Numbered from the stretch's first letter, positions 7,401 through 31,566 are shown. The stretch is DNA of 41,229 bases from Candidatus Micrarchaeota archaeon (GCA_040758235.1 JBFLVW010000027.1:1-41229), one strand, 5' to 3'. Program-made: numbers and translations. The notes: a model not told the origin generated them from the sequence alone.

Positions 7401-10400
7401 CGCGCCCAGGCTGTCCGCCTCGAGGTCTATGTGCTTCACGAATATGCTCTTCTTCGTCCCGTCGCCGAGGACGAGGTCGACCTTGAGCGTCCCCATTATC
7501 CCCTCCTGGCCGCTGACCCCGGTTATCTTCGCGCCTTCATAGCCGCGGATGGATGAAATCTGCCTCTCCAGGCCGCCCCTGAAGACGAGGTCGAATATGT
7601 GCGGGAGGTTCTCCACAAGCGTCTTCCTGTCCTCGGGAAGGACGTTGTCGAGCATCCCGAGCTTCTCCAGCACCGCCGCTTTCCCTTCGGCCCCTCCCGA
7701 ACCATAAGCCTTCACGAGCTCGGCCTGGAAAGATTTCGGGTCCCTGCCCCTCTGGAACGCGAGCGCCTCGATGGCCGGGGGGATTCTTCCGGCGCCCCGG
7801 TCCTCCTTCGAGCCGGTGATAAGCGAAAGCTCCCCTTCGCTGACTTGACCGGGCGTCCTGTTCGCTTTCGCCTCCCTTATTGCAGCGTCCCTCTTCGCCT
7901 CGACCCGCGCCCGTTCCCATTCCGCTATCTTCCTGTCCTTTATCGCCTGCGGCGCGTCTTTGTCGGCAAGGACGCTCAGCGTGTCGGCGAGGCCCCTGTC
8001 CACGAACTCCATCGACTTTATGCGCCTGTTGAACTCCGCCTCTGATTTCGCCTTTATGCCGGCGTATCTTTCCGAAAGCTCGACCAGGCCATTCCTGGTC
8101 TCCGGAACGCTCTTCTTCGAAATCAGCTCGAACGCCGATTCCAGGCTCCTGTTGTTCGCGAGCGCTTCGGCTATTATCGCCCTCTCCGTCGGGTCTGCGA
8201 GCATGAACCTCTCCCTGAAGGGGCTGTCCTCGCTGGTCAGCCTCCTGAAGTTGTCCGCGGCCTGGGAACTCATGTCCATGGTCAGGCGGGACACGTCCGC
8301 TTTGCTCACGTCGCTCCGCAGGCCGAGTTTCCCTTCGGCGGCCTTGAGCAGCTCGCTGCCCCTCGAGTAGGGGTCCATCCTATCCTCCTCTGCAATCCGC
8401 GAAAGCGCCTGCTCGTCGCTCTTGATTCCGGAGATGCTTTTCTTGTATTCGTCTATCTTTTCCTTCGAGGCCGTGACGGGCTTTTCCGCGGGCCGCTCAG
8501 GCTCGGCCCTGGCCTGGTTCATCCTCTGCGAGACTTCGATGACGGCCTCCGCCTCGGCCTGCGCCTCCAGCTTGCCGGCCGCCACCTTTTCCTGCCTGAG
8601 TCTCACTATCTCGTCGAACAGGGCCGCGTCCATGTACCTCCCCACCTTGTCCGAAGGCAGGGGTTCGTTGCGCAGAATCTTCTGCCAGTTCCTCGCGTCC
8701 TCGGCAATCTGGCTTTTTGCGTCTACTCCAGCGGCCTTGAGGCCGCTTTCGACATCAGTCACCTTTACCGGCTTCATCTCTCCTGCGAGGGATTCGGCTT
8801 TCGCCAACATCCCGGCCGGGTCGGAGGTCATCAGCGTGAGCATGCGGTCCCCGTACGCGCTCCCGGCGCGCACCTTGTCCGGGTCGATGCCCTGCTTCCT
8901 CAGCGCGGCATCGAACAGGTATTCCGCAACCGCGAATTTCGCCGGGTCGGCCGCGGCATAGCTCGACATGTTGGAATTCCAGTCTTTCGGGAAATCGCCC
9001 TTGAGGGCCACTTCCTCAGCCCCCGCTGCGAGCTGTCCGGCCCGTATCGCAATCCTGTCCAGCTCCTTCTTCCCTGCTTCCGACTTTTCATCGAAGAGGG
9101 GCTTCCCGTCCTCCCCGACGAGCGATTTGGCCTGCTTCCTGGCGTCGTTCCCTTCGGCGGCGAACTTCTCGAACATCTCGATGTTCGCCTTCCAGTTCTC
9201 CTTCGCCTTCTTCCCCATCATCCCGAGCACTTCGTCGATGACAGGGTATTTCACTTCCACCCCGAACTTCGCGGCGATCTCGTAATCCAGCCTGAAGCTG
9301 CCCCCCTTCCCTCCCTGGCCGACGGCCTTGAGGAATCCGCTCGTTCCGTAGAACATGTCATTCGGGGACTCGGTGCCGAGGCCCTTGACAGAATCGTGCG
9401 CCGTTTTCCTGTTCTCGACGTACCAGCTCGACTTGTCCGCGTATTCCGAAAGGATGGGAGCCTCCTCCATTACGAACCGCATCTCCTCCGGCTTCATCTT
9501 CGATAGGTACTCCTCATATAGCGCCAGCGGGGACTTCTCCGCGTACCTGTTCGCTATCCTGCCGTTCGAGCCCGCATCGACCGTGTTGGCGTCCTTCTCG
9601 TAAACCGGGACGGCCCCCCGCGGGAAGCCGAATGACGTCTTCTCCCCGACTTTAGCGTTATCGAAGGGGAACTCCGTTCGCTGTATCATGGCTTTCGCCA
9701 TGGCGATTTTCCGCTTGCCGTCCTCGGCCTTCAGCGGGTCAGCGGAATCCGGGTCCCACCCGAAGCTGTCCTTCATCAGCTTCTTCCCCTCGGCGGAATC
9801 CATCCATTCGAGCGTGGCGGAAACGCGCGCGGCCTTGCCGGGCAGCCTGCCCGGGTCCAGGTCATGGAGCATGCCGACCTGCGCCAGGAATGTCGCCTTC
9901 TCCTCCCTGCTTCCGAACAGCCTGGCGTCATTCTCCGTGAACGGCCTGTTCATCGCGAGAGAATAGGCCATCTTCGCCACGTTCTCGCTGTGCGCTATGT
10001 TATGGTATGCCGGCTTCTCCACGACCGTGCCGTCCGGCAGCGTTACCTGCACTATGCCGTCCCTCTCCAGAGGGTGGAGCTCGGCGAACCGCTTCGCGCC
10101 GACATGCTCCGAGGGAACGAACGGCCTGGTGCGCTTCGCGGCCTCCGCCTCGAGCTTAGATGCAGCCGATTCCAGGGCGGAGGCGCGCTCGGTCAGGGCA
10201 CCGGCCCCTTTCTTGAGCAGTTCGGCCTCTGCGCCCTTCGATGCAGCCGCCTGCTTCTCGAGCTCGGCGGCCTTCGTCCTCGCTGCCTGCGCCTGCTCCC
10301 TCCAGCCCTTCGCCATGAAGGCCAGGTCCTCATGGTTGTTCGTATAATCCTTGATGGCGAGCGCGGCCTCTGTCGCGTATGCCGCCTTGGCCACCTCGGG

Positions 10401-13400
10401 CTTCGAGGAAAGGCTCTCCAGGTCGCGCGCCTTCGCAAGGGCGAGGCGGAGCATCATCCCCGACTTGTTCCCTTCTGCCGCATCGGCGAATTCCGGCCTG
10501 CCCGCGAGCTCCTGGACGGTTTTCCTGTAAGCCTCCGGCACGTTGAGGATTGCCTTGTCGGATGCCGCACCTCCCCGGATTGCTTCAAGGTATCTTTTTC
10601 CGTAATATACTAGTCCGACTGCGGCGCTGAAATGCTCCTCCGAATAGTTGATGGCCGATTCATTCCTCCCTATCGTGTACACTTTGCCCCCTTCACCCGC
10701 GGCGATGGATGTGACGGTAGTCTCGAGCTCGCGGCCGAGCCGGCCCTGCTCCTCCCTTTCCAGCTTCTGCGCCTCGGCTTTCCGCGCCTCATCCAGCTCT
10801 TTGATGACCCTTTGGGGCTTCTCCGCAAGAGACTTATCATATGCGGCCATCGACTCGTCAACATTCCTCCCGGACTTCCTCGCATCAACGTACGCTTTCT
10901 GCTCGATGGGAAGCTCGGACGCGCTCTTCTCCCCCCTCCTCACCTTGTGGAAGGCCTCCTCGTTGGCTTTCGCCTGGGGCGAGCGCTTAAGCGACTGCTC
11001 GTATGCGAAGAACCCGGCTATGGCCTCGTCCCTCGATGCGCCGCGGGCCCTCTGCTCCGCATAGACGTACTCGTAGTCGCTCATCGCTGAGACGCTTTTT
11101 CTGCCGCCGGCAAGTGCCGTGTAGGACGCCTCATAGAACAGCCTTTTAGCGCCCGGGTCGTTCTCGACGTAATTTTCGAAGCTGGTGGCCTTTCCCGACT
11201 CCCGCGCCGCCCGGTAGTCCTTTATCAGCTGGCTCTCGGCATCGGGGGCGAACTCGACGCCCCTTTTCGCCTTGTATGCCGTGTAAGCGTCGCGCTCGGC
11301 AACAGGAAGCTTGCGGAATTCCCGCTTGTAGGAGGCATAGCTTTTCGCGACGGCATGTACATCTGCGGCGTCCCATGGGGTTCCGAGCGTCAGCGCCTCG
11401 ACTGTCTGCAGCCACTTCGGCCTGTAGGCCGGTATCCCGGTCCTCATCCCGACCGAGGCCCGGTAGGAGTGGAGGCCCGTCTGCACTATCGGGAGCGCGA
11501 CCGAGCCGATTTGCGCCGCCGCCTCCCACCATGTCATGTCGCCTTTTTCGACGGCCTTGAGGATGTCCTTGTAATTCCACAGCCCCTGGACGGTCCCTAT
11601 CCCTATCATCCCGATGCCGGCATAGGAGACCATGCGCTGGCCCATAGTGAGCGTCATCGTCTCCCCGGCTCCGAGAATCATGACCCCCTCGGTCGCGGCC
11701 GCCCTGACCTGCTGCCACTTCCCGATGCCGGGGAGCACAGGCGTCAGGACCGTCGTCACGACCTGCAGGCCGAAGAAGCCCTTCTCCTTCCCGGACATGT
11801 ACTCCCAGCCGCCCTCCTGCTTGTAGTATTCATAGGCGGCGGAGGCGCCCTCGACGGTGAGCTCAGCGATTGCCGCGGCGCCGGAAACGCCGCCGGTGAA
11901 CGGGCTCGCAGCGAACTGGCCCGCGATGCGCACCATCTTCACCACGAACAGCGTTGTGTTCTGCGCGCTCTGCATCCATTTCATGTCCTTGACGTGCTTG
12001 TTCGTCTCCTCGTCCGAATCCTTCCAGGTTCCTCCTTCCTTGACCCACGCCTTCCCTGCCTCGAAATTGTATTTTATCTCGGCCTTCCTCTCAGCCTCCA
12101 CCCTGGCTTCGTATTCCTTCCGGTCCGCTTCAGACAGGGGCAGATACGACCCCGGAAGGGGCTTGATCTGCCGGAACCTCATGGTGACTTCGGGGATGGA
12201 ATACTCGTCCATCCCCATCGACAGCCCCGCGGCCTTCGTGAAATGCGTCATCCTCTCCCCGACGCGCATGTAGTAGTCGTTCTGGTCGCCTGCGAAGAAG
12301 ATGTCGATTCCCATCGTGTTTCCGATGAGCGCGTTTCGCAGGAAGCTGAACTGCTCATACGCTTTGGACACCATCTGCGCGTCCTCCCTGCTCCCCTGCC
12401 ACACCTCGTACTTGTAGGCGAATTTCCCCGCGGCCGACTGTTCCTTGTCCTCCGACCTCCTTATCCCTATCACTCCAAGCTCGAGGAAAGTCTGCGCATC
12501 CGCGACGTTTCTGAAGTAGTCGCTGTTGCTTATGCGGTCATACCCGAAGCTCACGAAGTCGGCGGAGGCGTATGCGCTCAGCTCCAGGCCCATGCGCCGG
12601 TTCACATTGGCGAGCTCGTCGCCGAAGCTTATTGCCCTGCGGTCCCACTGGCTCCAGTTCCATTGCCACCTGTTGTGCTGGCCGGGCTCGTTTATCATGA
12701 CTACGAGAGGCTGGTCGTCATACCATGACCGTTCCTTGCTTCCCTTGAACTGGTATATCGGGGCCTCTATCCTGGTTTTGTCTGTGAGGAGGTCGAGGAA
12801 CCTGTAATCGTACTCCGGCCATGTGGCCGCTATCGCCGCCTCGCCCGCATACGCCGCGTTGTTCCTGTGGCCGTGATAAGTCTTTGCATTGTATACCGGA
12901 CCGGCCGTGTAATACTTATCCATTGTCCTGCTTTTCTCTTTGCGCCCCTTCTGCGACGAATCGGCGAGCGCTAGCTCGTCCCCCATCTTCCTCGCCAGTA
13001 TCATTGCGTACGCCCTGCCGTATCCGCTCTGCACCTCCCTCTTCCCGGCCATCGCCCCGCTCGCATACGCTTCCCACTGCGGGAGCTGATTTTCGGCCGT
13101 GTTGTTCAGCCCTTCCTTGGCGTTCTTCCTTATCGTCGGCATTATCGTCGCGAAATCCTCAGGGTTGTCCTGCAGGGCCTGGAAGAACTGCGCGGCCCTC
13201 TGGTTTCTCTCCCGCTCGTCTCTGCCTTCCCAGATGTAGTTGGCCATGTCCTCGTAATTTTTCCCGTTTCTCAGCGTCTTCGATTTCATGCTGTCCGGCA
13301 TTGCGAACAAAATGTCGCCGACCATGGCCGTGTTGATGCTCAGCGCGTCCGCCTTCCCGAACGCCATCGAGTCCCTGGCGTTCAGGTATGCTTCCTCCGC

Positions 13401-16400
13401 CTGCTTCCAGCCGCCACGCGTCTGGCGCTCCTGCCAGAGGTATCCTTTTTCCTGCAGGTCCAGGGGGGCGGTATTGACCATCTCCTCCCAGCCGTTCGCC
13501 ATTCGGAGGTAGCTGCCTTTGATGGAATTCACGACCGCTCCCATCGCGTCGTTCCTGTCCTCGGCCCTGGCCCTCTCCTCCCTGTCCTCTATCTTGTCCG
13601 TGGGTGCAAGGAGCTGCTCCTCGACTTTCCCCGCGGCGAGTATGTTCTCCCACCTCTTCTTCCTTGAAAGTATCGCCTTGTTGTCCAGCTTCTGCGTTTC
13701 GCTGTCCCTCCTTGCGCCGAGTTCGATATCTTCCAGCTCTTTCTGCGCGCCGCGGTGGTTTCCGCTCAGATACATCCTTTTCGCCTGGTTTATCCTCTCG
13801 TAGCTGGCCTTTGCGTCGAAGAATACGGGCTTGCCCTCGAACAGCAGCAGGGAAACGTTCCTGCCATTGTGCTTCACCCTGTCGTTCAGCCCTCCCTCGT
13901 ATTCCACGTAAGCCTGGAGGTCCTGGCTCGATTTGTCGGCCTTCGCGGTGAGCGCCGGAAGGTCGGAGGCCTTCACTTCGCCGGACACGATTTTGCTCCC
14001 CGAAACCGCCTCTTTGTCCTCCAGCGCCTTCTTGTAGAGCGCCTCGAGCTTCGCCAGCTCCGCATCCCTCTCCCTTCCCGGAGGCATATAGCTGATGAGC
14101 ATTTTTCCGATCTCGTAGCTTCTCATCAGGTCGGTCGTTCCCGGTCCGAACGGGGTGCCGAAATCGTTGATGCTGTCCCTGGATGCAGTTATGGGGGTCC
14201 CTGGGGGCACGAATTCGCCGCCGTATCCGCTTCCAGCCTCCTTCGCGAACCTCCGCTCCTCTATGAAATACGAAGCGGCGTCGAAATTCCCCCTCATGAA
14301 GAACTTGGCCTGTCCCGCCCTCCTCTCGCCATCGCGGAAATTCTCGTTCCAGTACAGGCCAACGACCCTCTTGTAGTCCCTCTCCACACCATCGATGTCG
14401 TAGATGAAAACCTCTTCCCTGGACTTCGGCCCGACCTTCTGTCCCAGCTCGATGTATATCTTCGTGAGTTCCTTCATCTCGCCGTTCTCGAATGCGAATT
14501 TGACGCGGTAGCGGTAATCCTGCCTTTCCTTCTCCGGAAGGAGTTCGATGAGCGGATTTATCCTGTTCTCGATGAACGCTTTCGATTTCGTGTACTCCGC
14601 TTCCTCCGTGACGGGCACACCCGCCTTCAGCCCCACTTCTACGTACAGCTCCTGCAGTTTTTTGGTGTCCTTCTGCTCAATCAGCCATTTCAGCTTGTCA
14701 AGATACGCCTGCCGCTCCCCCTCAGGCAGGAGGTTGATGATGCCGCCCACTATCTGCTCGGCGTTGCTCAGGTTGACCTCGTGTATCTCTTTCTTGGCAC
14801 GGGCTATCGACTGGTCCCTTCTCTTCTGGATTGCTTCCTGCCTGGACACCTCCTTCGTCCCCTCCACGGCGTGGGACTCGGCCTGCGCGGCGAGCTGGCG
14901 CGTCCGTCTCTCATCGGCGGCCACGGCCTCGCCCTCGCGCATGATGACGATTCCGTATTCATCGGCATCCACTCCCCTGCCAACGGCGGCGTAGGTCCGG
15001 ATGCCGATTCCGAGGTCAAGCCATCCGTCGTCGCGGCGCTTCGTGTTCAGTTTCAGCCCCTTCTCCAGGCTGAGGATGCCCCCGACGATGGCATCCGAGC
15101 TCCTTATCATCCGGTCGCCGGTCTGGGCTTCACTGGCCGCCTGGGCGTAAAGGCCGTCCGCCGTCTTCTTGTCCCCCGCGATGGCGGCCTTGTCGCCTTC
15201 GGCCTTCAGCCGCAGGGCTTCGTCCATATGCTTTCGCCCCTCTTCAAGCAGCCTCCTCGCTTCCCCGAGCTGGGACGAGACGAACTCAGAATCCGCTACC
15301 TCTTTGGTCCGCGCATAGTACTGGGCGAGCATTTCGTAGCCCGGCCTGCGTTCGGCATCCTGCTGCTTCCCGGCTGCATATTCGTGGGCTTTCTTTATCC
15401 TGGACTTGTCGAACTCCTCCGCCCTCTTTATCTTCAGGAGCCTCTCCGCATCCATGTAAGCCGTGAGGTGTCTGGAGTTTTTCGCTGATATGTCCTCAAG
15501 AGCGGAAATCCCGGCGTCCAAGTCGCCTTTGCCGAGGGCATCCGCAAGCGGCGTCCCGGCGATTATGGCGGAGGCGGCCGAATTCAGCTTCCCCTCCTGG
15601 GGCTTGAACTTATCCTCATGGATGTCGGCGAGGCGCTTTCTCCCCAGCCACTTGAAATCGCCGAGCGTCCCTTCCACGAAAGTAAGGGCGTCCTCCCGCT
15701 TCGCCTGCAGGTCCTTTCCCAGGCTTTTCGCGTCGAGCGCGGCCCATTTCGCGTAGCCTGTCGCGAGTTCCAGGGAGACCTGGAGGTCGTCCTTGTTCCC
15801 GCTCCATGCCGCGAATAGAGCGAGGTCGAAATATGCGGAAGCGTTCCTTCTCTTATCCGCATCCTTTATCGTTCCTTCATACCGAACCCGCTGCTCATAC
15901 ACCATGAGCACATTCCGCGCGACGGACCCCTCTATCTCGTTTTTCCCGTATTGCCTTGCGATGCCAAGGACCCTCTGCCGGTCGCCCTTCTCATCGAGGT
16001 CGGAATATATCGCCGCAGCCGAGGAATACATGGCGGCGTCCTCGAGCGTTCCGGACCTGAGGGCTTCGATGGAATACCCATATATCTCCGCCACTCCCCT
16101 GCGCTCCTCCTTGCCGCGCGCCCTGCCAAACGCCTTCGGAATGGAATCCCCGATGTCGGTGAGGGCGGAAAGCTTCCTCTGGTCCGCCTCACCCCGGGCT
16201 ATTGCGGCTATCGCATCATCGACCGAAATGGAACGCTCCTTGGCGTATGCCGCAATCTTTCCGGCAAGGTCGGGGTCGCTTTCCATCTGTTTCCGAATCC
16301 GCGCCCCCTCCGCCGCTATCTGGCCTTCCGTGGCGATGCTTTCCCCATTGACGATTTTCGTGCGGTATTCCCTAAGGAGCGAAGCCACCTGCGCCATCTG

Positions 16401-19400
16401 AGCTCTCGCTTCCTTTGGCGGGCCTTTCGCCGCCTTCTCGTACTCGTCGATTTTCTGGTCCAGCTGGAGGTAGCCGTTCACCATGCCCAGCTTAGAGGCG
16501 TCGCTCGCGAGACCTGCGGAAAGGGATTCGAGCTCGCCCCGTTCCGCGGGTTTTTTGCCCGGGCTCAGGTATTCCTCCGCAAGGAAGCCGTGCGCAGCGG
16601 CAAGCTCCATCTCCCCGCCGCCTGACAGCGCGGCAAGCGCCCTGTTGTAGAACGCGAGCCCGCCCTTCCTCACATCGGCATCCATCTTCCTTGCGAAGCT
16701 GGCGTCCATCCTCGAAAACATCTCGAGCGCCGCCCTGCCCCTTGCGAGCGCCGATATGTCGCATTTTGCCGGGTCGGCGGCGAAGGAGCCCAGGCCGTCC
16801 GCGAGGGGCTTGACGGCATCCGCCGTGTCCTTGCCGTATTTGCCGGCCCGCGAGTCTATTTCAGCGGACAGGGATTTCGAAAGATATGTTATCAGCTCGT
16901 TTTTCGGCGCCTCTGTTTCATCCGCGCTCTTCGCCTGCGCTACCGCGCCGGAATACTTCAGCAGCTCGGCGCGCTTCGCCTTCGATGCCTTGTCTTTCCC
17001 CGCATATCTCAGAATCTGCTCGGCTGCGAAAATCATGAAGTCGAACAGCCGGGGGTCTCCCGTATTGTCATAAGCGCTGAAAGCGTTCGAATACGCGGCT
17101 AGCGCGTCCTTGTAGAGCGCCGGGTCTGATTCCTTCAGCTCGGCAAGCGCGGGAATTACTTCGCTGAGCTTCCCGAAGCGCACCATCAACGGGCCGTAGA
17201 CGTCGTCGCCAAGGTTCTTCCCGGATTTCAGCTCCGCGATGCGCGCGTCGTTGTCCGCCGCCAGCTTGTCGATGAACGGGAGGAGCTCCGGAGGCGCCTT
17301 CGCGCTGAGCTCAAGAAGCTGGACGTTGTTTCCCCTGAGCGCTCTTTCCTTGGCCTCCCTCTCGTCTTTCGCGAGCTTGACGGCCTTTTCGGCGAAGCTG
17401 AAAATGAACTTGTCCGCATCATCCTTGCCGACTTTTGCGCCGGGTTCGAGGGCCGCGAACATGAACGAAAGCGCCCCGGAAAGGAGCTGCATGCCCGCCG
17501 GACTGAGGAGGGTATCCTTGTTCTTGATGATGAGCCCCATGGCAGCAATCACCATGTCCGCTTTCCACTCCTCCGCGGTCCCTATGTACGCGGACGCGTC
17601 CCGCATGCCCTTGAGTATCTCTGCCGGGAACTGAAGCTCCTCGAGCTTCTTCGCCCCGTCCTCGAGCGATTTTTTCTTCTCGCCGGCCTGGGACCGGGCC
17701 TCCTGCGCCCTTCTCCCGCGCAGATTCACGAGGCTCGCGAACTTAACTGGCTGAACCGGCTTCTCCACCGGGGGCTGCGGCGCCACCGCCGGTCCGGCCT
17801 CCTCCTTCCCCGGCTGGACCCTGTGAGTCCCTGCGGGCACAGGCCCGGCCCTGCTTAAAAGGCCCCGGAATTCCGCATCCGCCTTCTCCTTGCCTGTTTC
17901 CGGCTTCGCGACCGAGGCGACGAACGAGAGCAGCCCGTCAAGCAGCCCCTTGTTTTTCTTTTCGGCGAGCATGCCTTTCCTGCGCAGGAAGAAGCGCGCG
18001 GCGGAGAATATCCTCTCTCCGCGCCACTCCTGCCCCTTCATCCCGAACCATTTCGCCGCGCCCTTCACCGCATCGATGAGGGGCTTGGGGGCTCCGGCCT
18101 CCTCGAGGCCCGCGACAAGCCTCTTCGCTTCGAGAGCCCTCGCGTTGGAGCGCGCGGTCCCGACCAGTCCCTTCGCCTTGTCGGCAGGCCATTCGCCCTT
18201 TTTGATGCCGAGCCCCTTCTCCACTTCCTGGTCTTCCTTCGGGCCTGCAAGGAGTCCGATGAATTTCCCGAGCGCCTCGAAAAGCCCCTTCCCCTTCGAA
18301 TCCCTGGCGAGGTCGCGGTATTGCGAGAACAATTTTGCGGCAGCAAAGGAGAATTTCGCCCTCCATTCGCTCGCGGTCCCGTAGAACCTGTATGCGGCGC
18401 GCACGGCCTTGAGCACGGGCTCCGGAGCGCCGCTCTGCCTCAGGTCCCTCTCGAGCGAAGCGAGCTCCACAAGGCCCTTCGTCTTCCTGTCGGCGGCTCC
18501 AAGCAGCTCCTTCGCCCTCTTCTCGAGGCGCTCGGCCTCGGCTTCGAGCTTCTTCGCTTCCGCGGCCTTCCCCTGCTCCCGGAGCTTCTTTACCTGCCCG
18601 CGCAGCTCGTCCGCCTTCTTCATCGCCGCCGCGGCCTCGCGGTCGAGCTTCCGTATGTCTGCGACCTCCTTCTCGTAGAGCTTCTTCCCGTCCAGGGAAA
18701 TCACGGCCAGTTTCGCAAGCACCGATTCGCGTCCGAGCATGGCCTTCATATCAGCCGGGCTGACCTTCCCTTCCTCCAGCCAGCGGCTGAACCTCTGAAG
18801 CTCCTCCTTCCTCTCCGGGTCCTTTTCGGCGGCATACCTCTTCGCGAGCGTCTTCTGTATGCGCGCCTCCTCCGCCTTCCCGGCCCGCATCGAGCGGATT
18901 CCCCTCGCATAAATCGCGCTCGCAGGCCCGCGGGCGTCGGCCGGCATGCCCTCGAGGTCCTCCTCCGCGGCCTTCGCGAAGGCGAGGGCCGCCGCGGCCT
19001 TGTCCTTCTCGTCTTGAGACGCCTCCCCGCTTTCCATCTTCTCCTTGAGCTTCTTCACTTCCTCTTCGAGTTCCTTTACAGCCACCAAATACTCCTTGTC
19101 CTTCTTGGCCTGGGAAACCGAGCGGAAAAACGCGTCGGACTGGTGTATGAAAGCGAATATCTCCTGCACGGGCCTTGTCACCTGCATGAGGGCCCTCGCG
19201 GCGGCGTCGATGGCCTCCTGCGTGGCGATTTCCCCCGCCGCCGCCCGCTCGCCTATATTCGTTATGTATCCAAAGAGCCCGTCCCTCGCGTTCGCCATGC
19301 CGGGCGTGCCGGAGTCGAGCGACACCCTGTTATCCTTGTAGAAATGCACGCCGCTGTAAAGCGAGTCGGACCAGCCCTCGCCGCCGGCACCCGCACGCTG

Positions 19401-19871
19401 CCAGACGCTGAGCATCGCCCGCTGGACCGGCTCGGGCTGGTTCTCGAAATCCGCGTTCCTCATCCTGCGCAGTTCCTGCGCCCGCTGGACGCCGATGTTG
19501 TATTCCCTCTGTGCGAGGTCGGTCCTCCCTTCGCGCATGTGCCGCTCGGCGTTGTCGAAATGCGCGGCAGTGTCGCGGGCCTGGCTCTCGAGGGCTCCGC
19601 CGCTGAACCCGCCCATCTCCTTGCGGATGCGGTTGCCGTGCTCTGTGAGCGTATCCCTCGAGAGGGGCATCCTCGTGCTCGTATCCTCGGCCCTCGCGAC
19701 GAAACTCCCCACGATTCCGTCTGCCTTGTTGTATTCAAAACCCAAGAACCTTCCCTTGAGGTCCTCCGCCCTCGGCGCGAATGCGGGGGGCGCGGCGGGC
19801 TGGGGCTGGACTCTCGGCACTTCCTGCGGAGCCTGCTCCTTCACCCTCTGTTCGCCGCCCAGCTCATGCAC
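1449..19871 (-). CDS. Giant 6140-aa multidomain protein: helical repeats, hydrophobic segment, HD/PDEase-like domain and three PI3K/HipA-like kinase domains
   Basis: Uninterrupted 18.4-kb ORF with a GTG start overlapping the upstream stop. Motifs: YHNIAH...LHDLDPG...YADKS; FVK...DRHGEN...IDMD; FVK...DRHDIN...IDTD; YVK...DGHEGN...IDTD. Confidence 0.95.
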   Translation of the reverse strand: MHELGGEQRVKEQAPQEVPRVQPQPAAPPAFAPRAEDLKGRFLGFEYNKADGIVGSFVARAEDTSTRMPLSRDTLTEHGNRIRKEMGGFSGGALESQARDTAAHFDNAERHMREGRTDLAQREYNIGVQRAQELRRMRNADFENQPEPVQRAMLSVWQRAGAGGEGWSDSLYSGVHFYKDNRVSLDSGTPGMANARDGLFGYITNIGERAAAGEIATQEAIDAAARALMQVTRPVQEIFAFIHQSDAFFRSVSQAKKDKEYLVAVKELEEEVKKLKEKMESGEASQDEKDKAAAALAFAKAAEEDLEGMPADARGPASAIYARGIRSMRAGKAEEARIQKTLAKRYAAEKDPERKEELQRFSRWLEEGKVSPADMKAMLGRESVLAKLAVISLDGKKLYEKEVADIRKLDREAAAAMKKADELRGQVKKLREQGKAAEAKKLEAEAERLEKRAKELLGAADRKTKGLVELASLERDLRQSGAPEPVLKAVRAAYRFYGTASEWRAKFSFAAAKLFSQYRDLARDSKGKGLFEALGKFIGLLAGPKEDQEVEKGLGIKKGEWPADKAKGLVGTARSNARALEAKRLVAGLEEAGAPKPLIDAVKGAAKWFGMKGQEWRGERIFSAARFFLRRKGMLAEKKNKGLLDGLLSFVASVAKPETGKEKADAEFRGLLSRAGPVPAGTHRVQPGKEEAGPAVAPQPPVEKPVQPVKFASLVNLRGRRAQEARSQAGEKKKSLEDGAKKLEELQFPAEILKGMRDASAYIGTAEEWKADMVIAAMGLIIKNKDTLLSPAGMQLLSGALSFMFAALEPGAKVGKDDADKFIFSFAEKAVKLAKDEREAKERALRGNNVQLLELSAKAPPELLPFIDKLAADNDARIAELKSGKNLGDDVYGPLMVRFGKLSEVIPALAELKESDPALYKDALAAYSNAFSAYDNTGDPRLFDFMIFAAEQILRYAGKDKASKAKRAELLKYSGAVAQAKSADETEAPKNELITYLSKSLSAEIDSRAGKYGKDTADAVKPLADGLGSFAADPAKCDISALARGRAALEMFSRMDASFARKMDADVRKGGLAFYNRALAALSGGGEMELAAAHGFLAEEYLSPGKKPAERGELESLSAGLASDASKLGMVNGYLQLDQKIDEYEKAAKGPPKEARAQMAQVASLLREYRTKIVNGESIATEGQIAAEGARIRKQMESDPDLAGKIAAYAKERSISVDDAIAAIARGEADQRKLSALTDIGDSIPKAFGRARGKEERRGVAEIYGYSIEALRSGTLEDAAMYSSAAAIYSDLDEKGDRQRVLGIARQYGKNEIEGSVARNVLMVYEQRVRYEGTIKDADKRRNASAYFDLALFAAWSGNKDDLQVSLELATGYAKWAALDAKSLGKDLQAKREDALTFVEGTLGDFKWLGRKRLADIHEDKFKPQEGKLNSAASAIIAGTPLADALGKGDLDAGISALEDISAKNSRHLTAYMDAERLLKIKRAEEFDKSRIKKAHEYAAGKQQDAERRPGYEMLAQYYARTKEVADSEFVSSQLGEARRLLEEGRKHMDEALRLKAEGDKAAIAGDKKTADGLYAQAASEAQTGDRMIRSSDAIVGGILSLEKGLKLNTKRRDDGWLDLGIGIRTYAAVGRGVDADEYGIVIMREGEAVAADERRTRQLAAQAESHAVEGTKEVSRQEAIQKRRDQSIARAKKEIHEVNLSNAEQIVGGIINLLPEGERQAYLDKLKWLIEQKDTKKLQELYVEVGLKAGVPVTEEAEYTKSKAFIENRINPLIELLPEKERQDYRYRVKFAFENGEMKELTKIYIELGQKVGPKSREEVFIYDIDGVERDYKRVVGLYWNENFRDGERRAGQAKFFMRGNFDAASYFIEERRFAKEAGSGYGGEFVPPGTPITASRDSINDFGTPFGPGTTDLMRSYEIGKMLISYMPPGRERDAELAKLEALYKKALEDKEAVSGSKIVSGEVKASDLPALTAKADKSSQDLQAYVEYEGGLNDRVKHNGRNVSLLLFEGKPVFFDAKASYERINQAKRMYLSGNHRGAQKELEDIELGARRDSETQKLDNKAILSRKKRWENILAAGKVEEQLLAPTDKIEDREERARAEDRNDAMGAVVNSIKGSYLRMANGWEEMVNTAPLDLQEKGYLWQERQTRGGWKQAEEAYLNARDSMAFGKADALSINTAMVGDILFAMPDSMKSKTLRNGKNYEDMANYIWEGRDERERNQRAAQFFQALQDNPEDFATIMPTIRKNAKEGLNNTAENQLPQWEAYASGAMAGKREVQSGYGRAYAMILARKMGDELALADSSQKGRKEKSRTMDKYYTAGPVYNAKTYHGHRNNAAYAGEAAIAATWPEYDYRFLDLLTDKTRIEAPIYQFKGSKERSWYDDQPLVVMINEPGQHNRWQWNWSQWDRRAISFGDELANVNRRMGLELSAYASADFVSFGYDRISNSDYFRNVADAQTFLELGVIGIRRSEDKEQSAAGKFAYKYEVWQGSREDAQMVSKAYEQFSFLRNALIGNTMGIDIFFAGDQNDYYMRVGERMTHFTKAAGLSMGMDEYSIPEVTMRFRQIKPLPGSYLPLSEADRKEYEARVEAERKAEIKYNFEAGKAWVKEGGTWKDSDEETNKHVKDMKWMQSAQNTTLFVVKMVRIAGQFAASPFTGGVSGAAAIAELTVEGASAAYEYYKQEGGWEYMSGKEKGFFGLQVVTTVLTPVLPGIGKWQQVRAAATEGVMILGAGETMTLTMGQRMVSYAGIGMIGIGTVQGLWNYKDILKAVEKGDMTWWEAAAQIGSVALPIVQTGLHSYRASVGMRTGIPAYRPKWLQTVEALTLGTPWDAADVHAVAKSYASYKREFRKLPVAERDAYTAYKAKRGVEFAPDAESQLIKDYRAARESGKATSFENYVENDPGAKRLFYEASYTALAGGRKSVSAMSDYEYVYAEQRARGASRDEAIAGFFAYEQSLKRSPQAKANEEAFHKVRRGEKSASELPIEQKAYVDARKSGRNVDESMAAYDKSLAEKPQRVIKELDEARKAEAQKLEREEQGRLGRELETTVTSIAAGEGGKVYTIGRNESAINYSEEHFSAAVGLVYYGKRYLEAIRGGAASDKAILNVPEAYRKTVQELAGRPEFADAAEGNKSGMMLRLALAKARDLESLSSKPEVAKAAYATEAALAIKDYTNNHEDLAFMAKGWREQAQAARTKAAELEKQAAASKGAEAELLKKGAGALTERASALESAASKLEAEAAKRTRPFVPSEHVGAKRFAELHPLERDGIVQVTLPDGTVVEKPAYHNIAHSENVAKMAYSLAMNRPFTENDARLFGSREEKATFLAQVGMLHDLDPGRLPGKAARVSATLEWMDSAEGKKLMKDSFGWDPDSADPLKAEDGKRKIAMAKAMIQRTEFPFDNAKVGEKTSFGFPRGAVPVYEKDANTVDAGSNGRIANRYAEKSPLALYEEYLSKMKPEEMRFVMEEAPILSEYADKSSWYVENRKTAHDSVKGLGTESPNDMFYGTSGFLKAVGQGGKGGSFRLDYEIAAKFGVEVKYPVIDEVLGMMGKKAKENWKANIEMFEKFAAEGNDARKQAKSLVGEDGKPLFDEKSEAGKKELDRIAIRAGQLAAGAEEVALKGDFPKDWNSNMSSYAAADPAKFAVAEYLFDAALRKQGIDPDKVRAGSAYGDRMLTLMTSDPAGMLAKAESLAGEMKPVKVTDVESGLKAAGVDAKSQIAEDARNWQKILRNEPLPSDKVGRYMDAALFDEIVRLRQEKVAAGKLEAQAEAEAVIEVSQRMNQARAEPERPAEKPVTASKEKIDEYKKSISGIKSDEQALSRIAEEDRMDPYSRGSELLKAAEGKLGLRSDVSKADVSRLTMDMSSQAADNFRRLTSEDSPFRERFMLADPTERAIIAEALANNRSLESAFELISKKSVPETRNGLVELSERYAGIKAKSEAEFNRRIKSMEFVDRGLADTLSVLADKDAPQAIKDRKIAEWERARVEAKRDAAIREAKANRTPGQVSEGELSLITGSKEDRGAGRIPPAIEALAFQRGRDPKSFQAELVKAYGSGGAEGKAAVLEKLGMLDNVLPEDRKTLVENLPHIFDLVFRGGLERQISSIRGYEGAKITGVSGQEGIMGTLKVDLVLGDGTKKSIFVKHIDLEADSLGANLAAANGMVTGKIHTTGADGAPLSYNTGIVYNDPLLGRTTKMQSYGFSEDIHGFAGSRVKVKMPGGKTEEVTVVSVAILGKEVMEPGKRAQILGDKNDPRYEAVRKFDEMVRDDGQREQILRAWHAYHELSRRSLLADRHGENTAVFVVDRGPNVPAGERYKVVFEPIDMDYVLKGSEPRDFNSDFMEKTDGFIGNMSRAWNIPEGRLYDQMIAEYKKKAFPDESRQDREAARKATLEAIEAHDGKKFGLGFDVSDSGYGIGRNSLHYGGRSRVIESADGRMTLYADEALPIAKKLNGKEAEGEFLKAQHDALVRAKESKEEGTLQRENYEEPLPPLPVESGPRTGKPGAVVSEKTTPGRRAAIKPSDEVTKPGVKVAAGAEGFEPAPVPKEFERDLSHSVAADLAGSPVKVGGLALALMKGEEWALHVRSALGDHPVGKLVDEMIAGKTTESRRLLEAAKELEAGRGSVEFAKMRAVYAKMMMDAVVAAEKAAPSKPPVSEPEISIVREAPSGKMPPAPPQPKIMSVSEAAGAFTGADQAARSQAINSFLKMDARDQTAVISELRESGREKEAIHLTEMQAISGEAGGVIAKMYGIDKGELVWIYSSAPDAVSARTLLMGRLGIAVKDLPWKTYDQANRGWVSKPYKEFNSPYEDNFIFGIITSGNLIGSIADAYGGAKIKSVEFRNGAVGAYEVVIETRRADGSAETRSVFVKRQDLRPDRAGSEYSMESGVPAPRVTTSAGGKDLVYTQPDGNVSRYGIIEDMKKFEGSINLGGVDARVKTVYESSIHDLADSPMLGWLNSADPKIRDMFWKELGYMLAGSYAVGMWDRHDINSRAMVLEITNPLHNSDPANPASPTVRDALVGKGYTVWDENGKTYAFMMGGIDTDTGAGYKAYETGGKYDMTVMNAQFGADLHRLFATMARIRGAKVEDLVAEAFGDMSGGTPGGPLGEGISRWMKLYGNDPKYMDRVKTAFASHNGEPAGFGITQDEGTVRRLKSGEAVHFEMPLSGDPYTLIAFQDGRSIMRADYEVVQPWALKQWDETVLGMFPPGRDIVLVEINDKSKGAVSDIGTRFNTIVTGDKRTVAIIDAADPAVAELAKSGVGMVRARRDIPQPSEVAHENKVGVIRGDAGMGDMLGVQASKAGAVPVFEWMMGAGEGFMKEQFGSIGKNILSYEDAKKKEAKPAPLAKEEAPLPVASKVPAAAPDQPTGMMPAKPVSGQKPVQGEINVPSKREEPKPGPSPPTPSWLEDLTAAAPPKFTPGKIVDALAAERHPDAKDALVAYSQLPIDAQLGVYREMHNRARKAWEDANALEATQPDAAAVYRENAQRIGVQAIRLGEVMALKGDVGRRLEGTLGLPEGSLVNAYLEKGTIEAAREEVAKRLGVIVPNYSDHGLFGMLITGDLAGVLRDLYPGAKEIKIESIGGGATGAYPVRVKDAAGLEHVEYVKMVDMVPDKAGAENLRRSGIPAPEVITTNKAGQPLLFMQPDGTVSAYGISRDIGEFSGTVKAGGREIKITTDKALPLAKMESSPEIMDIFINHPDAFWNEMGYMNAAGFAVGAVDGHEGNVFAMILDIKNPTKENIKALRDSGVYVFQDAAGDYKMFRLGRIDTDDSAGTYMAKGRKGKFDFGYYAGWTGEYHVFPRLLPFLTRVKNQYEATQAGTWRFDVPAQAVDNFKRNGWEVKADAAGYFIDAVNPDQVRRLANVGLNQVSAPAGTPRFVSVHDMVAQGMDGGKGQFYKGMKRWFREHDNADYRKAMEDGFRSKEGQSAGVSSFKLKPNQMAQLARDGVTYMAFPNNGENNMPVFYYDGRTRLMADYEKVNVIAAAPEIAPLFPQSRLVFVAPVSKKEAAGMSGTFKVGRKYFAVFTSYDAVPVNLRGNAVPATGHHGIVRAAPGFGKLTGLKTERVGAVQVFDYIMDMGERGIAKEWRKIEKMFVKHERKLEEEDLIKGDERMKRMFVNQRMPLGFGPDAYPPKRSR

Positions 19872-29111: not shown

Positions 29112-29327
29112 TAGCCCCGAGCGGATTTGAACCGCTGTCAAGGGATCCAAAGTCCCCTATCCTTGACCTTTGTCAGTTTCGCCTTTTTAGTTTCCCTGGT
29201 TTTCACCGGTGAAAAAGGCGAGCCCAAAAACAGGCGAAAATTGCCTTCGGATTTTGCGCAGAGCGCAAAATCAACCGCCCGTTTTTGCCCCGCTTTTTAC
29301 TAAAAAGCGGGACTAGACGACGGGGCT
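29112..29327 (-). tRNA. tRNA-Gln(UUG) with a 143-nt D-loop intron
   Basis: 5' exon AGCCCCGTCGTCTAG(T) from 29327. 3' exon GGTCAAGGATAGGGGA-CTTTGGA-TCCCTTGACAGCGGTTCAAATCCGCTCGGGGCTA ends at 29112. Acceptor, D, anticodon and T stems all pair. The intron lies at about 29170-29312 (boundary +/-1). Confidence 0.9.
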
Positions 29328-29366
29328 GTGCACAAAAGAGCGCTGGAAAGAATAAATAGCTGCCTG

Positions 29367-30269
29367 TCATTGGCCGGGGCGGTCGAAAGCCCTAAGGAAA
29401 CTGACGACGTTCTCGCCGAGCTTCGGGAGGTGATACCCTCCTTCGAGGCACGCGAACTTCGGGCAGTCGATTTTATTGATAAGCGCCCCAATCCTGTAAT
29501 ACGTCTCGCTCATCTCGATTCCCAGCTCCGCGACGGGGTCCCTGACGAACGTGTCGAACCCTGCGCTTATCCCCACGATTTTCGGCGCGAACGCCTTTAC
29601 CCGCTCGAGGGCGGCGGAAAGCGCCTGCAGGTACACTTCGTCGCCCGTTCCGCGAGGCAGCTCCACGTTGAGGATGTGCTGGCTGCTCTCGCCTGCGAAA
29701 CCCGTTCCGGGATAAGTTGTGTACGGGTCCTGGTGGAGCGAAAGGAAAAACACCCTCCCGTCCGTAAGGAAGATATCCTGCGTCCCGTTCCCGTGGTGGA
29801 CGTCGATGTCCACGACTGCCGCCCTCTCGATACCCATGCTGAGGACGTTCTTCAGCGCAATAGCAATGTTGTTGAAATAGCAAAATCCCCCAAAGCCCTC
29901 CCTCTCGGCATGGTGGCCAGGGGGCCGGACAAGTGCGAACGAGAACTCGCCGGTGTCCATCGCATTGTAGGCGGCGTCCATCGCCGCCCCCGCCGCGAGC
30001 CTCGCGATATCATAGGTATGTTTCTCGAACCCCGTGTCGGTATCCTCGCGGTATTCCTGCTCCGACAGGGCCCTCACAGAGCGGACGTGCCTTTCCGAAT
30101 GCGCAAGCAGCAGGTCCTGCTCCTCTGCCGCGCGCGGCTCGGCCAGCTCATGCCTGAGGCCGCTTCTCTCCAGGGCCGCCAGGATGGCGCTAAGCCTCTC
30201 CGGGCGCTCAGGATGGGTTGAAGCCGGCTGCTTGTGCTCCATGAATCGTGGTGAATAGTAGATTCGCAT
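29367..30269 (-). CDS. Histone deacetylase family (Zn-dependent) amidohydrolase
   Basis: HPERPERL, RPPGHHA, GFCYFNN, DIDVHHGNGTQ, SAGFD, LEGGY. Confidence 0.96.
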   Translation of the reverse strand: MRIYYSPRFMEHKQPASTHPERPERLSAILAALERSGLRHELAEPRAAEEQDLLLAHSERHVRSVRALSEQEYREDTDTGFEKHTYDIARLAAGAAMDAAYNAMDTGEFSFALVRPPGHHAEREGFGGFCYFNNIAIALKNVLSMGIERAAVVDIDVHHGNGTQDIFLTDGRVFFLSLHQDPYTTYPGTGFAGESSQHILNVELPRGTGDEVYLQALSAALERVKAFAPKIVGISAGFDTFVRDPVAELGIEMSETYYRIGALINKIDCPKFACLEGGYHLPKLGENVVSFLRAFDRPGQ

Positions 30270-30321
30270 GGTAATTATGGTGCCGGGTAGGTTATTTATT
30301 CCTTTGCGGGGGGTTCATTCC

Positions 30322-31086
30322 ATGCGCTTGCCCCAGGCGGGCCCGATGAGGGCCGCCCTGCTCTTTGGCGGTGGCATCGGTGCAGGGCTTCTCATCTCTT
30401 TCATTGCCCTGCTGCTCCTCTTCAACCTTCCCTACGGCAGGCAGCCTCCCGTATCGGCGACATGCATGGAAAATCCCGCGGAATCCGTCATAATGCTTCC
30501 CGAACCGTCGCACGCAGGCATGCCGCTCGAAGAGGCAATACGCGAGCGGCGCTCGATGCGTGTTTTCTCGAACGAATCGCTTTCTTTGGGGGAACTCTCC
30601 CAGCTTCTCTGGGCCGCGCAAGGGATTACTGACGAGCGCCTGGGATTCAGGGCCGCTCCTTCCGCGGGGGCGACCTACCCGCTTCATGTTTATGTGGTCC
30701 CGAACCGCGTCGAGGGGACAGGATGCGGCATCTACCTATACGACCCATTCGAGCATGGCCTGTTTCTGGTGCGGGAGGGCGAATTTTCGGAAGAAGTCAG
30801 CGCAGCCGCATTCAACCAGCCCCACGTGCGCGACTCGGCGGCTGTTTTTGTCATAGCTTCCGAGCCGTCAAGGACTTTTGAGCGCTACGGGAACGACACG
30901 GAGCGTTTTGTCCACATAGAGGCAGGCCATGTTGCCCAAAACATTTTGCTCGAAGCGACGTCCCTCGGCCTCGCCGCTTCCCCGATAGGAAGCATCTATC
31001 AGGATAAAATGGACTCGGCGCTGGGAATCAACGGCACTGGGACGAACTCTGTCTATGTCGTGATTGCCGGGAAAAAGCCCGATTAG
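30322..31086 (+). CDS. SagB/ThcOx-family nitroreductase-like dehydrogenase with an N-terminal membrane anchor
   Basis: RRSMRVF, LSQLLWAAQG, RAAPSAGATYPL, IEAGHVAQN. Hydrophobic N-terminal helix. TATA-like 30292-30300 favours ATG 30322 over 30268. Confidence 0.9.
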   Translation: MRLPQAGPMRAALLFGGGIGAGLLISFIALLLLFNLPYGRQPPVSATCMENPAESVIMLPEPSHAGMPLEEAIRERRSMRVFSNESLSLGELSQLLWAAQGITDERLGFRAAPSAGATYPLHVYVVPNRVEGTGCGIYLYDPFEHGLFLVREGEFSEEVSAAAFNQPHVRDSAAVFVIASEPSRTFERYGNDTERFVHIEAGHVAQNILLEATSLGLAASPIGSIYQDKMDSALGINGTGTNSVYVVIAGKKPD

Positions 31087-31125
31087 TCAGCTATTTATTC
31101 TTTTCTTGGCTTAGCTATCTGTTTT

Positions 31126-31361
31126 GGGCCCGTAGTCGAATTCCGTCTAAATGACTGACGACTCTGGTTAAGACGCCACTCTCACAAACTTTTTGGGAAA
31201 AAGTTTGACAAAAACCGGCTGTTGCAAAACCCTTTCGGGTTTTGGGGAAACCATTTTTGCGAGCCGCAAGGCGAGCAAAAATTAGCAAGTCGGTTTTGGT
31301 CCAGCTTTTCCCAAAAGCTGGAGTGCAGTGGAGATTCGCGGTTCGATCCCGCGCGGGCCCA
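31126..31361 (+). tRNA. tRNA-Val(CAC) with two introns (24 nt at 15/16; ~139 nt at 37/38)
   Basis: Exons 31126-31140, 31165-31186 and 31326-31361 join to GGGCCCGTAGTCGAA-TGGTTAAGACGCCACT-CTCACAC-AGTGGAGATTCGCGGTTCGATCCCGCGCGGGCCCA. All stems pair and the A15-U48 Levitt pair is restored. Confidence 0.87.
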
Positions 31362-31407: not shown

Positions 31408-31566
31408 AAATTTGGGCGAAGTGGCCGAAGGCCACTCAGAGCCCAATTTTTTTCCTTGCATCCCGCATCAGGCATCCGGTTTCCGGTCCTGGGTTTTGAC
31501 TCAGGCAAAATTGGGCAAAGTGGCCACAGCCACTCAGAGCCCAATCTCCCTTCCTTGCATCCCACA
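31408..31566. repeat. Two ~60-bp imperfect direct repeats, each a hairpin, separated by 7-bp repeats
   Basis: TTGGGC.AAGTGGCC(gaag/aca)GCCACTCAGAGCCCAAT...TTCCTTGCATCCC at 31408-31467 and 31507-31566. Spacer is gcatccc gcatcag gcatccg gtttccg gtcctgg. Confidence 0.8.

Follow-up and report, generated by a model that had tools for sequence, protein, structure and literature searches.

Candidatus Micrarchaeum acidiphilum (ARMAN-2) carries tRNA introns with non-canonical bulge-helix-bulge (BHB) motifs and a three-unit endonuclease of the epsilon2 type, according to the parts of the relevant papers used here (PMC3239211; PMC3488258; PMC12397907), and enzymes of this type cut both strict and relaxed BHB motifs (PMC3239211; PMC12397907). 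Families of transposed tRNA introns are known from the Thermoproteales (Sugahara 2008; Fujishima 2010, as summarised in PMC4090602 and the preprint 10.64898/2026.10.13.758758). The same preprint places 28.3% of 272 Thermoproteales introns in cross-tRNA families, compared with 1.5% of 1,062 intervening sequences in Asgard archaea, and the mechanism of Thermoproteales intron movement was called unknown in a 2014 account (PMC4090602). In animals, DNA transposons are removed from mRNAs by SOS splicing (Nature 2025, PMC12779559). Here we describe two long introns, one in a tRNA-Gln(UUG) gene and one in a tRNA-Val(CAC) gene, that lie on contig 27 of an assembly of 1.57 Mb (G000; 126 contigs, 59% G+C) whose host organism is identified as a Micrarchaeota (DPANN) archaeon. 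The window is the whole stretch of 41,229 nt that was analysed from this contig. The evidence makes it likely that both introns are members of one BHB intron family that has proliferated in stable-RNA genes within a single Micrarchaeota genus.

The Val intron closely resembles introns in the Thr(CGU), Ser(GCU) and Glu(CUC) tRNA genes of the same genome (nhmmer E values of 1e-33 to 5e-39). When a profile was run over G000 at E <= 0.5, 28 clusters of matches were obtained, and on inspection 24 were in or directly against tRNA genes, including one in a 5' leader, two in 3' trailers and one after a duplicated tRNA 3' end. One further cluster starts exactly at the end of a match to the signal recognition particle (SRP) RNA, bringing the number at stable-RNA genes to 25 of 28, and three were unplaced. 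BLASTN searches with the Val intron found matches in 21 of 24 sampled congeneric species, and weak partial matches in two of 16 genomes from other families.

A covariance model (R1; 139 positions, 45 pairs) was built from 15 full copies of six species. At E <= 1e-4 it found matches in 27 of the 39 other species of the genus and no match in the remaining 12, with copy numbers that range from none to dozens and reach 49 matches in one genome (G045), both strands being counted. In an order-wide draw searched with stricter filters, R1 matched four of six genomes of the genus and none of 16 from seven other genera of the family; beyond the family there were two weak matches (41–45 bits) among 19 genomes of one other family and none among 39 elsewhere. 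The lengths of the introns across the family are about 100–220 nt. The existence of a family had been proposed from the two window introns alone, and the covariance-model scan bears this out by finding many more members.

The Val intron scores 142.6 bits with R1 in the sense direction (E 4e-25) and 47.9 bits in antisense. Both strands match the profile and the model because the arms of the element mirror each other. The Gln intron was found by nhmmer with E values of 8.8e-5 (sense) and 1.9e-9 (antisense), and its orthologue in G023, at the same site, is a clearer member of the family.

The tRNA-Gln(UUG) gene (29112–29327, minus strand, 216 nt with its intron) and the tRNA-Val(CAC) gene (31126–31361, plus strand, 236 nt with two introns) were located with a purpose-written acceptor/T-arm cataloguer, which is blind to genes with T-loop introns (these were placed by eye), together with ARAGORN on the in-silico spliced forms. 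In the Gln gene, exon 1 (29313–29327, positions 1–15, ending ...GTCTAG) and exon 2 (29112–29169, starting AGGTCAAGG) flank a 143-nt intron (29170–29312), inserted between positions 15 and 16 of the D-loop. The limits of this intron were set by comparison with 14 parsed Gln(UUG) orthologues, five of them intronless, in which exon 1 invariably ends in GTCTAG and exon 2 begins with C/AGGTCAAGG; the exon 2 assignment also agrees with ARAGORN. In the Val gene, intron 2 (31187–31325, 139 nt) was identified with R1 and a BHB scan, occupies the canonical 37/38 site and is the best-scoring member of the family. Intron 1 (31141–31164, 24 nt) lies in the D-loop at 15/16, falls outside the family and was recognised by comparison with insert-free Val genes (G000 contigs C2 and C77, and G014); by hand, CGAC at its 3' end pairs with GTCG at positions 10–13. 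When the exons were joined by coordinates, ARAGORN reported a 73-nt tRNA-Gln(ttg) and a 73-nt tRNA-Val(cac). The sequence-only reading had described introns of about 140 nt in two tRNA genes, at a different tRNA position in each; lengths, limits and positions agree with this, but the 24-nt Val intron had been overlooked.

A full copy of the element consists of two mirror-image arms, each a hairpin whose G+C-rich outer stem varies and whose inner stem, of U4-5 paired with A4-5, is nearly invariant. The left hairpin (H1) is followed by a tail, CCAAAAAC, and the right hairpin (H3) is preceded by another, GTTTTTGG. Together with adjoining bases the tails form a long stem (P2), inside which lie two or three small hairpins, namely P2a (A-tract first), often a GAAA mini-hairpin, and P2b (U-tract first). 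In every copy a hairpin adjoins the exon or the end of the mature RNA with the tail directed away from it, and the same arrangement is seen in trailers, a leader and the spacer of a convergent pair of tRNA genes.

In Val intron 2 (plus strand), H1 (31185–31207; CAAAC-T5-GGG-A5-GTTTG; helix 1 of the covariation set) takes its first two bases from exon bases C36 and A37. Stem P2 (31210–31297; helices 2–4) is formed by 31210–31224 with 31282–31297, and within it lie P2a (31225–31244), the GAAA mini-hairpin (31244–31252) and P2b (31253–31282, with a GCAA loop). H3 (31301–31321; CCAGC-T4-CCC-A4-GCTGG) is helix 5, and at 31320–31325 a host-matched GGAG, which pairs with anticodon-loop positions 32–34 in the BHB scan, and the bulge bases TG precede the 3' splice site.

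The Gln intron (minus strand) has H1 at 29289–29311 (CCCGC-T5-AGT-A5-GCGGG, then the tail GCAAAAAC), P2 at 29226–29286 (strands 29276–29286 and 29226–29236, around a hairpin at 29250–29272) and H3 at 29179–29221 (TCGCC-T5 ... A5-GGCGA). It is a divergent member, with one inner hairpin rather than two or three and a loop of 23 nt in H3. The precursor tRNAs fold better than shuffled sequences (z = -5.09 for Gln and -6.41 for Val), none of 200 shuffles being as good. All of the hairpins and stems that had been read from the two introns are present. The complementarity noted between the flanking loops is also real in both (GGG/CCC in Val, AGT/ACT in Gln), but across the family it amounts to a tendency of H1 loops to be G-rich and H3 loops C-rich, and the loops do not behave as a covarying pair. 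Exact reverse-complement loops within an element were found in 12 of 41 cases, barely above the shuffled mean of 7.9 and matched or exceeded in 274 of 5000 shuffles, which gives the proposed kissing loop no specific support.

Covariation was counted on a model-guided alignment of 54 matches representing 46 distinct copies. Among the distinct copies, 95.2% of cells are paired, and changes on both sides of a pair were found in 28 of 45 pairs (270 cells). None of 500 shuffles reached any of the five measures used, and sliding the partner by 1–3 columns left only 15–60 cells. The covariation check suggested by the sequence-only reading therefore gave a strong result. An independent RNAalifold analysis of a MAFFT alignment of 15 copies found double changes in 15 of 40 pairs. 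The two arm hairpins keep different outer stems, with 98.0% of helix 1 and 98.4% of helix 5 paired, and in helix 1 (H1) seven of the eight pairs have changed on both sides.

The pairing had been described as kept, with G-U wobbles, on the transcribed strand, and the counts agree, with 109 G·U against 16 A·C combinations, or 49 against 16 when two conserved wobble columns are left out. This excess means that pairing is kept on the transcribed strand, and points to selection on RNA rather than on a DNA cruciform. Tailed hairpins make up 34 of 78 hairpin matches, in a list that includes overlapping registers and opposite-strand views, compared with a background of 0.7%. In the same redundant list, 17 of the 34 have no partner tail within 250 nt. 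Retention of the tail without a partner in about half of the cases suggests that it may do more than pair in P2.

The ends of the elements were examined with a strict BHB scan, restricted to narrow windows, for an exon helix, a helix of 4 bp, a 3-nt bulge cut after its second base, and an outer helix. A strict-type BHB, with at least three of the four central-helix pairs formed and an exon helix of 4 or more, was found in 34 of 45 hosted copies. Among the 34, 25 have a perfect central helix, 22 an outer helix of at least 4, and 20 a second bulge of the form AA|N. Val intron 2 is of the strict type, with three of four central pairs, an exon helix of 5 and an outer helix of 9–11 with one mismatch.

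The intron 3' end follows a rule. Four bases complementary to a loop of the host (positions 32–35, 54–57 or 10–13) come first, and then two bulge bases, most often AA. A perfect central helix is seen in 25 of 34 true pairings and in 109 of 1062 pairings of introns swapped between hosts with fixed junctions, a figure that rises to 316 of 1062 when a search of ±3 nt is allowed; because the true calls are the best within a window, the contrast with the swaps is somewhat inflated. The elements carry much of their own splice signal. Contrary to the suggestion that tRNA introns serve them as safe harbours, they are not passengers there but the introns themselves, and their ends help to build the splice motif.

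G000 encodes a three-unit epsilon2 splicing endonuclease and RtcB. Its EndA has two endonuclease domains in one frame of 389–423 aa, is 84–87% identical to tRNA-intron lyase proteins of Candidatus Micrarchaeota and Candidatus Bilamarchaeum, and matches the three-unit ARMAN-2 enzyme (PDB 4fz2) with an E value of 4.8e-129. RtcB was found in all four genomes searched, at 563.6 bits in G000, where the match to RNase P RNA (81.3 bits) is just below the gathering score of 84. G000 also contains a second, short endonuclease-family frame of 141 aa (C104:3644-3889, L010), which ends at a contig edge.

Taken together, splicing itself, the junctions, circularisation and mobility are what we infer from these sequence features. 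The four host-matched bases and two bulge bases at the intron 3' end would provide the central helix, and the left-arm U-tract would pair with the right-arm A-tract to give the outer helix. The epsilon2-type splicing endonuclease would then cut within the two 3-nt bulges, and RtcB would join the exons and presumably circularise the intron. Given the properties of RtcB, an excised intron is expected as a circular RNA.

The hosts of the 46 distinct copies span about 25 isoacceptor types, with up to three copies in one gene, and in G045 the family is present in more than 15 isoacceptors. In these assignments 35 copies are at 37/38, seven are in the T-loop or T-arm (at 59/60 where they could be placed) and two are in the D-loop. 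One of the remaining two lies in 23S rRNA (G045 C81:1670-1849, inside a large-subunit rRNA match extending to 1991), and the other is directly 3' of a tRNA, in its trailer. All 46 are in the sense orientation relative to the host RNA. Host placement was made by reading the flanks by eye; of the G045 copies, a simple tRNA finder could assign no more than roughly one third.

Single arms are also found at the ends of stable RNAs. Left arms lie directly at the 3' ends of a tRNA-Lys (C30), of another tRNA (C71) and of the SRP RNA match (C93), and a right arm runs up to the 5' end of a tRNA (C29). A complete two-armed element occupies the spacer of a convergent tRNA gene pair in a genome from a different family of the order (L126, G088:C70:1-260), one arm lying against each 3' end. 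A leader-trailer stem around a whole tRNA was looked for, and no gene was seen to combine a leader arm with a trailer arm.

Several features of the host loci were recorded beside these copies. The SRP RNA match in G000 (C93:2240-2535, L083:341-636) scores 81.4 bits in Rfam, below the gathering score of 96.5, and the left arm that starts at its end contains CCCAAAAC. In the 23S rRNA gene of G045, a weak match to a group I intron (L090:514-757; 30.5 bits, gathering score 50) lies upstream of the BHB element. In five of the 33 G000 tRNA genes (C50, C54, C78, C83 and C91) the last 10 nt are repeated exactly 46–152 nt downstream, with a T-run directly after the second copy in C54, C78 and C91 and after 7 nt in C50. 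This suggests one more intron near the tRNA 3' end, with ambiguous exact limits. Many G000 tRNA genes share a word directly at their 3' side, TTTTTGGTCAAATG (variants TTTTTGTTCA and TTTTGGTCAGATG), which is often followed by a G+C-rich hairpin. A tRNA-Met(CAU) gene at about 18310–18690 of G000 C30, examined by eye, has a long anticodon-loop intron with box C/D-like words and a half-element in the T-loop.

Two further inserts were found in association with tRNA introns. One is a module of about 45 nt, with a stem GTCAGTT.../...ACTGAC around ATTTTCCC-TTCG-GGGAAAAT, which is a stand-alone D-loop intron in G000 (C91, C48 and C45) and is nested between P2a and P2b in G045, as an intron within an intron (L069, L070, L076, L079 and L081). 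The other, of about 50 nt (...CCATGGAAC...GTTCCATAGGGAAG), is nested inside the loop of an arm hairpin, either H3 (L003 and L007) or H1 (L028 and L032), in Thr and Ala introns of G018, G009 and G010.

The comparison of orthologous tRNAs for presence or absence of the intron, which had also been proposed, was informative for Gln(UUG), where eight of 30 loci were unparsable and 14 orthologues were parsed. Besides the five intronless genes, seven of these contain family introns, two as full variants (143 nt in G000 and 118 nt in G023) and five truncated to 40–55 nt, and two contain unrelated introns of 37–46 nt. All of the inserts are at the same D-loop site. Other genes vary in the same way. Val(UAC) is uninterrupted in G000 and has full copies in G021 and G010, and Asp(GUC) has no element at 37/38 in G000 and full copies in G023 and G014.

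The nearest relative of a copy is in a different host tRNA for 28 of the 46 copies (12 in the same genome and 16 in another), in the same host of another species for seven, and in an isoacceptor for the same amino acid for 11. The closest cross-host pair, Asp-GUC of G023 and Glu-UUC of G016, is 91% identical. Many introns are half-elements, with one arm and the splice motif. Such a pattern would be expected of a core that serves propagation rather than the host. In this account copies arrive in new tRNA genes, in new loops and in rRNA, and then decay to half-elements that retain no more than splicing requires. On this evidence the elements are a family of structured and probably mobile inhabitants of tRNA genes.

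The sense-only orientation, the restriction to stable-RNA genes and the selection at the RNA level are easier to reconcile with an RNA-mediated route, or with recombination between RNA genes, than with cut-and-paste of DNA. One tentative reading, which we regard as possible rather than likely, is that the family represents a sequence-defined BHB intron that is currently or recently mobile. Its two-armed fold would let the endonuclease and RtcB (or an unknown partner) reinsert the excised, probably circular intron into structured RNAs, the insertion then being fixed in DNA. Reinsertion of this kind would explain why all copies are in sense, why the sites are confined to stable RNAs, including the inside of other introns, and why target-site duplications are missing.

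The alternative that survives best is a DNA transposon of the miniature inverted-repeat transposable element (MITE) type, as the sequence-only reading had suggested. The arms would then be terminal inverted repeats for a transposase, and copies would survive where pairing in the transcript allows excision by the endonuclease and RtcB, making the family an archaeal counterpart of SOS splicing. The arms are indeed near reverse complements, as the matches on both strands indicate, and end pairing contributes to the outer BHB helix. The transposition of Thermoproteales introns is supposed to occur at the DNA level, according to a review (PMC4090602), and in SOS splicing, whose authors ask if such a system exists in archaea, inverted-repeat pairing triggers excision and RTCB ligation (PMC12779559). 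The genome with the highest copy number, G045, also has two Y1 transposase genes.

The copies themselves, however, point away from a MITE, and we consider it an unlikely explanation. The uniform sense orientation and the placement of 25 of 28 G000 clusters, by inspection, in or against stable-RNA genes count against it, as does the excess of G·U over A·C. Although the A/U tracts, loops and tails of the arms mirror each other, their outer stems differ, and compensatory changes preserve the outer stem of each hairpin, with no covariation in the arm-to-arm duplex. No target-site duplications were found, as the longest direct repeats between 14-nt flanks were distributed as in mismatched flanks. 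Nor was a matching transposase found: searches of G000, G021 and G014 gave no Y1 transposase, and a TnpB-type domain was found in none of four genomes. An IS200/IS605 origin was tried and rejected, since the element shows no relation to the ends of the IS200-like unit in G045 (best model E value 0.44).

It is very unlikely that the elements are a noncoding RNA useful to the host, with the core released, probably as a circle, to act as a guide, sponge, scaffold or regulator of tRNA supply, and with many copies reflecting selection for dosage rather than selfish spread. Strong conservation of the core at the RNA level, including conserved wobble pairs and an unpaired word beside P2, and the single orientation of the copies would suit such a role, and functional small RNAs are known to be encoded in archaeal introns, as with the box C/D RNA of the tRNA-Trp intron. 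A useful RNA would, however, hardly decay freely to half-elements with only arms and splice motif, be missing from orthologous genes in many species, go undetected at E <= 1e-4 in 12 of 39 congeneric species and vary from none to dozens of copies, and no Rfam family matches it. That the arm is primarily a signal for end processing or termination at stable RNAs, with introns secondary and formed when two arms were captured inside genes, is more unlikely still: the single arms at RNA ends, the element in the convergent spacer, the enrichment of tails (half of them unpartnered) and terminator-like T4-5 runs that start no more than 7 nt from the 3' end in 22 of 33 tRNA genes favour it, but most copies are internal to genes, well-terminating T-runs would preclude production of the host tRNA, no gene has both a leader and a trailer arm, and a trailer may simply be another insertion site.

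A number of observations weigh against the account of one BHB-spliced family that has moved among stable-RNA genes. The first concern splicing: 11 of the 45 hosted copies fail the strict-type test in the narrow window. They include T-arm and D-loop copies, the rRNA copy and copies with a nested insert in H3, and a wider window is needed for two of them to pass. For the Gln intron the scan gave no strict BHB; a relaxed form was drawn by hand only, with a GTC/GAC helix, an AA|A bulge and an outer helix only after an internal loop. The Gln intron also scores alike with R1 on both strands (39.3 bits sense, 42.6 antisense). The outer helix, formed by the left-arm U-tract with the right-arm A-tract, competes with both arm hairpins, which are the form visibly maintained by selection; the enzyme may recognise either the paired ends or a junction of stacked hairpins. 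An alternative fold had been suggested for these introns, and such end-to-end pairing is geometrically needed for a strict BHB, but the arm-to-arm duplex shows no covariation beyond the shared A/U tracts (74.9% paired, compared with 72.2% when shuffled).

T5 runs are also present on the sense strand of the introns (two in Val, three in Gln and six in one other gene), and as these resemble the likely tRNA terminators, efficient transcription is hard to square with them. The covariation alignment was fitted to the model and hence leans towards structure, the host labels and the sense orientation rest on reading flanks by eye, and the nearest-neighbour analysis covers the retrieved copies, 23 of 46 of which are from one genome. 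G000 is 80% complete. Machinery for movement was searched for and none was found. Reverse transcriptase was not found in G000, G021 or G045 (90% complete) and was found in G014, a result that, with genomes this incomplete, counts neither for nor against an RNA route, and a narrow test of viral contigs gave no exact match to one core pattern.

Neither tRNA gene of the window is visible to standard searches. ARAGORN in default mode and Rfam at the gathering score gave zero matches in the whole window because both genes are interrupted, and ARAGORN with introns allowed still missed both. When Rfam was relaxed to E <= 1, the window yielded only the Gln 3' exon as a tRNA (25.3 bits) and one match at chance level, and neither intron matches any Rfam family at or near the gathering score. 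Interruption is the rule in this genome, affecting 28 of 33 plausible entries in the tRNA catalogue. ARAGORN found six uninterrupted tRNAs in the whole assembly, and Gln(UUG) and Val(CAC) are not among them. The reading of both tRNAs as pseudogenes was rejected, as the assembly holds no intact second copy of either. Standard tRNA finders miss most tRNA genes in these genomes, and tRNA counts used to assess genome quality in this lineage are therefore likely to be too low.

Elsewhere in the window, a histone-deacetylase-family gene between the two tRNAs was present in one of 39 congeners and failed as a synteny anchor. One open frame of 6140 aa (1449–19871, minus strand) occupies nearly half of the window. 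Downstream of tRNA-Val on the plus strand there are two similar hairpins about 100 nt apart (approximately 31408–31448 and 31507–31545), with a stem TTGGGC/GCCCAA around an inner GTGGCC...GGCCAC and a T7 run after the first.

Among the systems described previously, ARMAN-2 is closest in host, sharing the phylum-level lineage and, judging from the EndA match to PDB 4fz2, the enzyme type. In both, introns lie at 37/38, in the T-loop (59/60) and elsewhere, several may occupy one gene, strict BHB motifs occur beside relaxed ones (candidates only in the present case), and a majority of tRNA genes are interrupted. The introns depicted for ARMAN-2 are, however, 13 and 25 nt long, and no repeated family or conserved fold is described in the parts of that source used here (PMC3239211), whereas the family described here is 100–220 nt long, has a five-helix fold with covariation and is also present in 23S rRNA and trailers. 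We found no description of such a family in Micrarchaeota in the literature, though the supplementary tables of PMC3239211 and of the Asgard preprint may bear on this. The Asgard introns resemble those here in that there are many per tRNA gene, D-arm introns are missed by standard software, sites are BHB-competent and gains are repeated (10.64898/2026.10.13.758758). They differ in forming few cross-tRNA families, with no route of arrival found in the parts of that account used, while here one family makes up a large share of the long introns.

SOS splicing is similar in outline. An element with inverted-repeat ends is removed without the spliceosome, the flanks are joined by RtcB/RTCB and pairing of the ends is part of the signal, although for the introns described here this is predicted from sequence. 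In animals the endonuclease is unknown, TSEN is not required and excision is imprecise, according to the parts of PMC12779559 used here. For the present family the tRNA splicing endonuclease would be expected to act on a defined BHB, the hosts are tRNAs and rRNA, and hallmarks of DNA transposons are missing. If the tentative RNA-reinsertion reading is true, this would be the first such sequence-defined BHB intron, and the archaeal counterpart that the authors of SOS splicing asked for.

The Thermoproteales families provide the closest parallel in behaviour, with closely related introns in tRNA genes of different identity and at different positions within one genome, and with a BHB at the junctions. 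They belong to another phylum with another type of endonuclease and, in the summaries available, are defined by the sequence identity of short introns, whereas the element described here is long and two-armed, has adaptor bases matched to its host, is genus-wide and can be modelled as an RNA family. We regard the two as the same kind of phenomenon and not as the same families. How archaeal tRNA introns reach new sites has been an open question since the Thermoproteales observations, and the present family gives it a concrete handle. It is long enough to model, has measurable covariation and is present in dozens of copies in some genomes with none detected in others. Presence, truncation and absence can be compared at one orthologous site, and the rule of host adaptation (four matched bases and AA) is readable. 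The kind of element is already known, and what sets the present family apart is its size, its two-armed covarying fold, adaptor bases matched to the host, its occurrence in rRNA and trailers as well, and its distribution across the genus.

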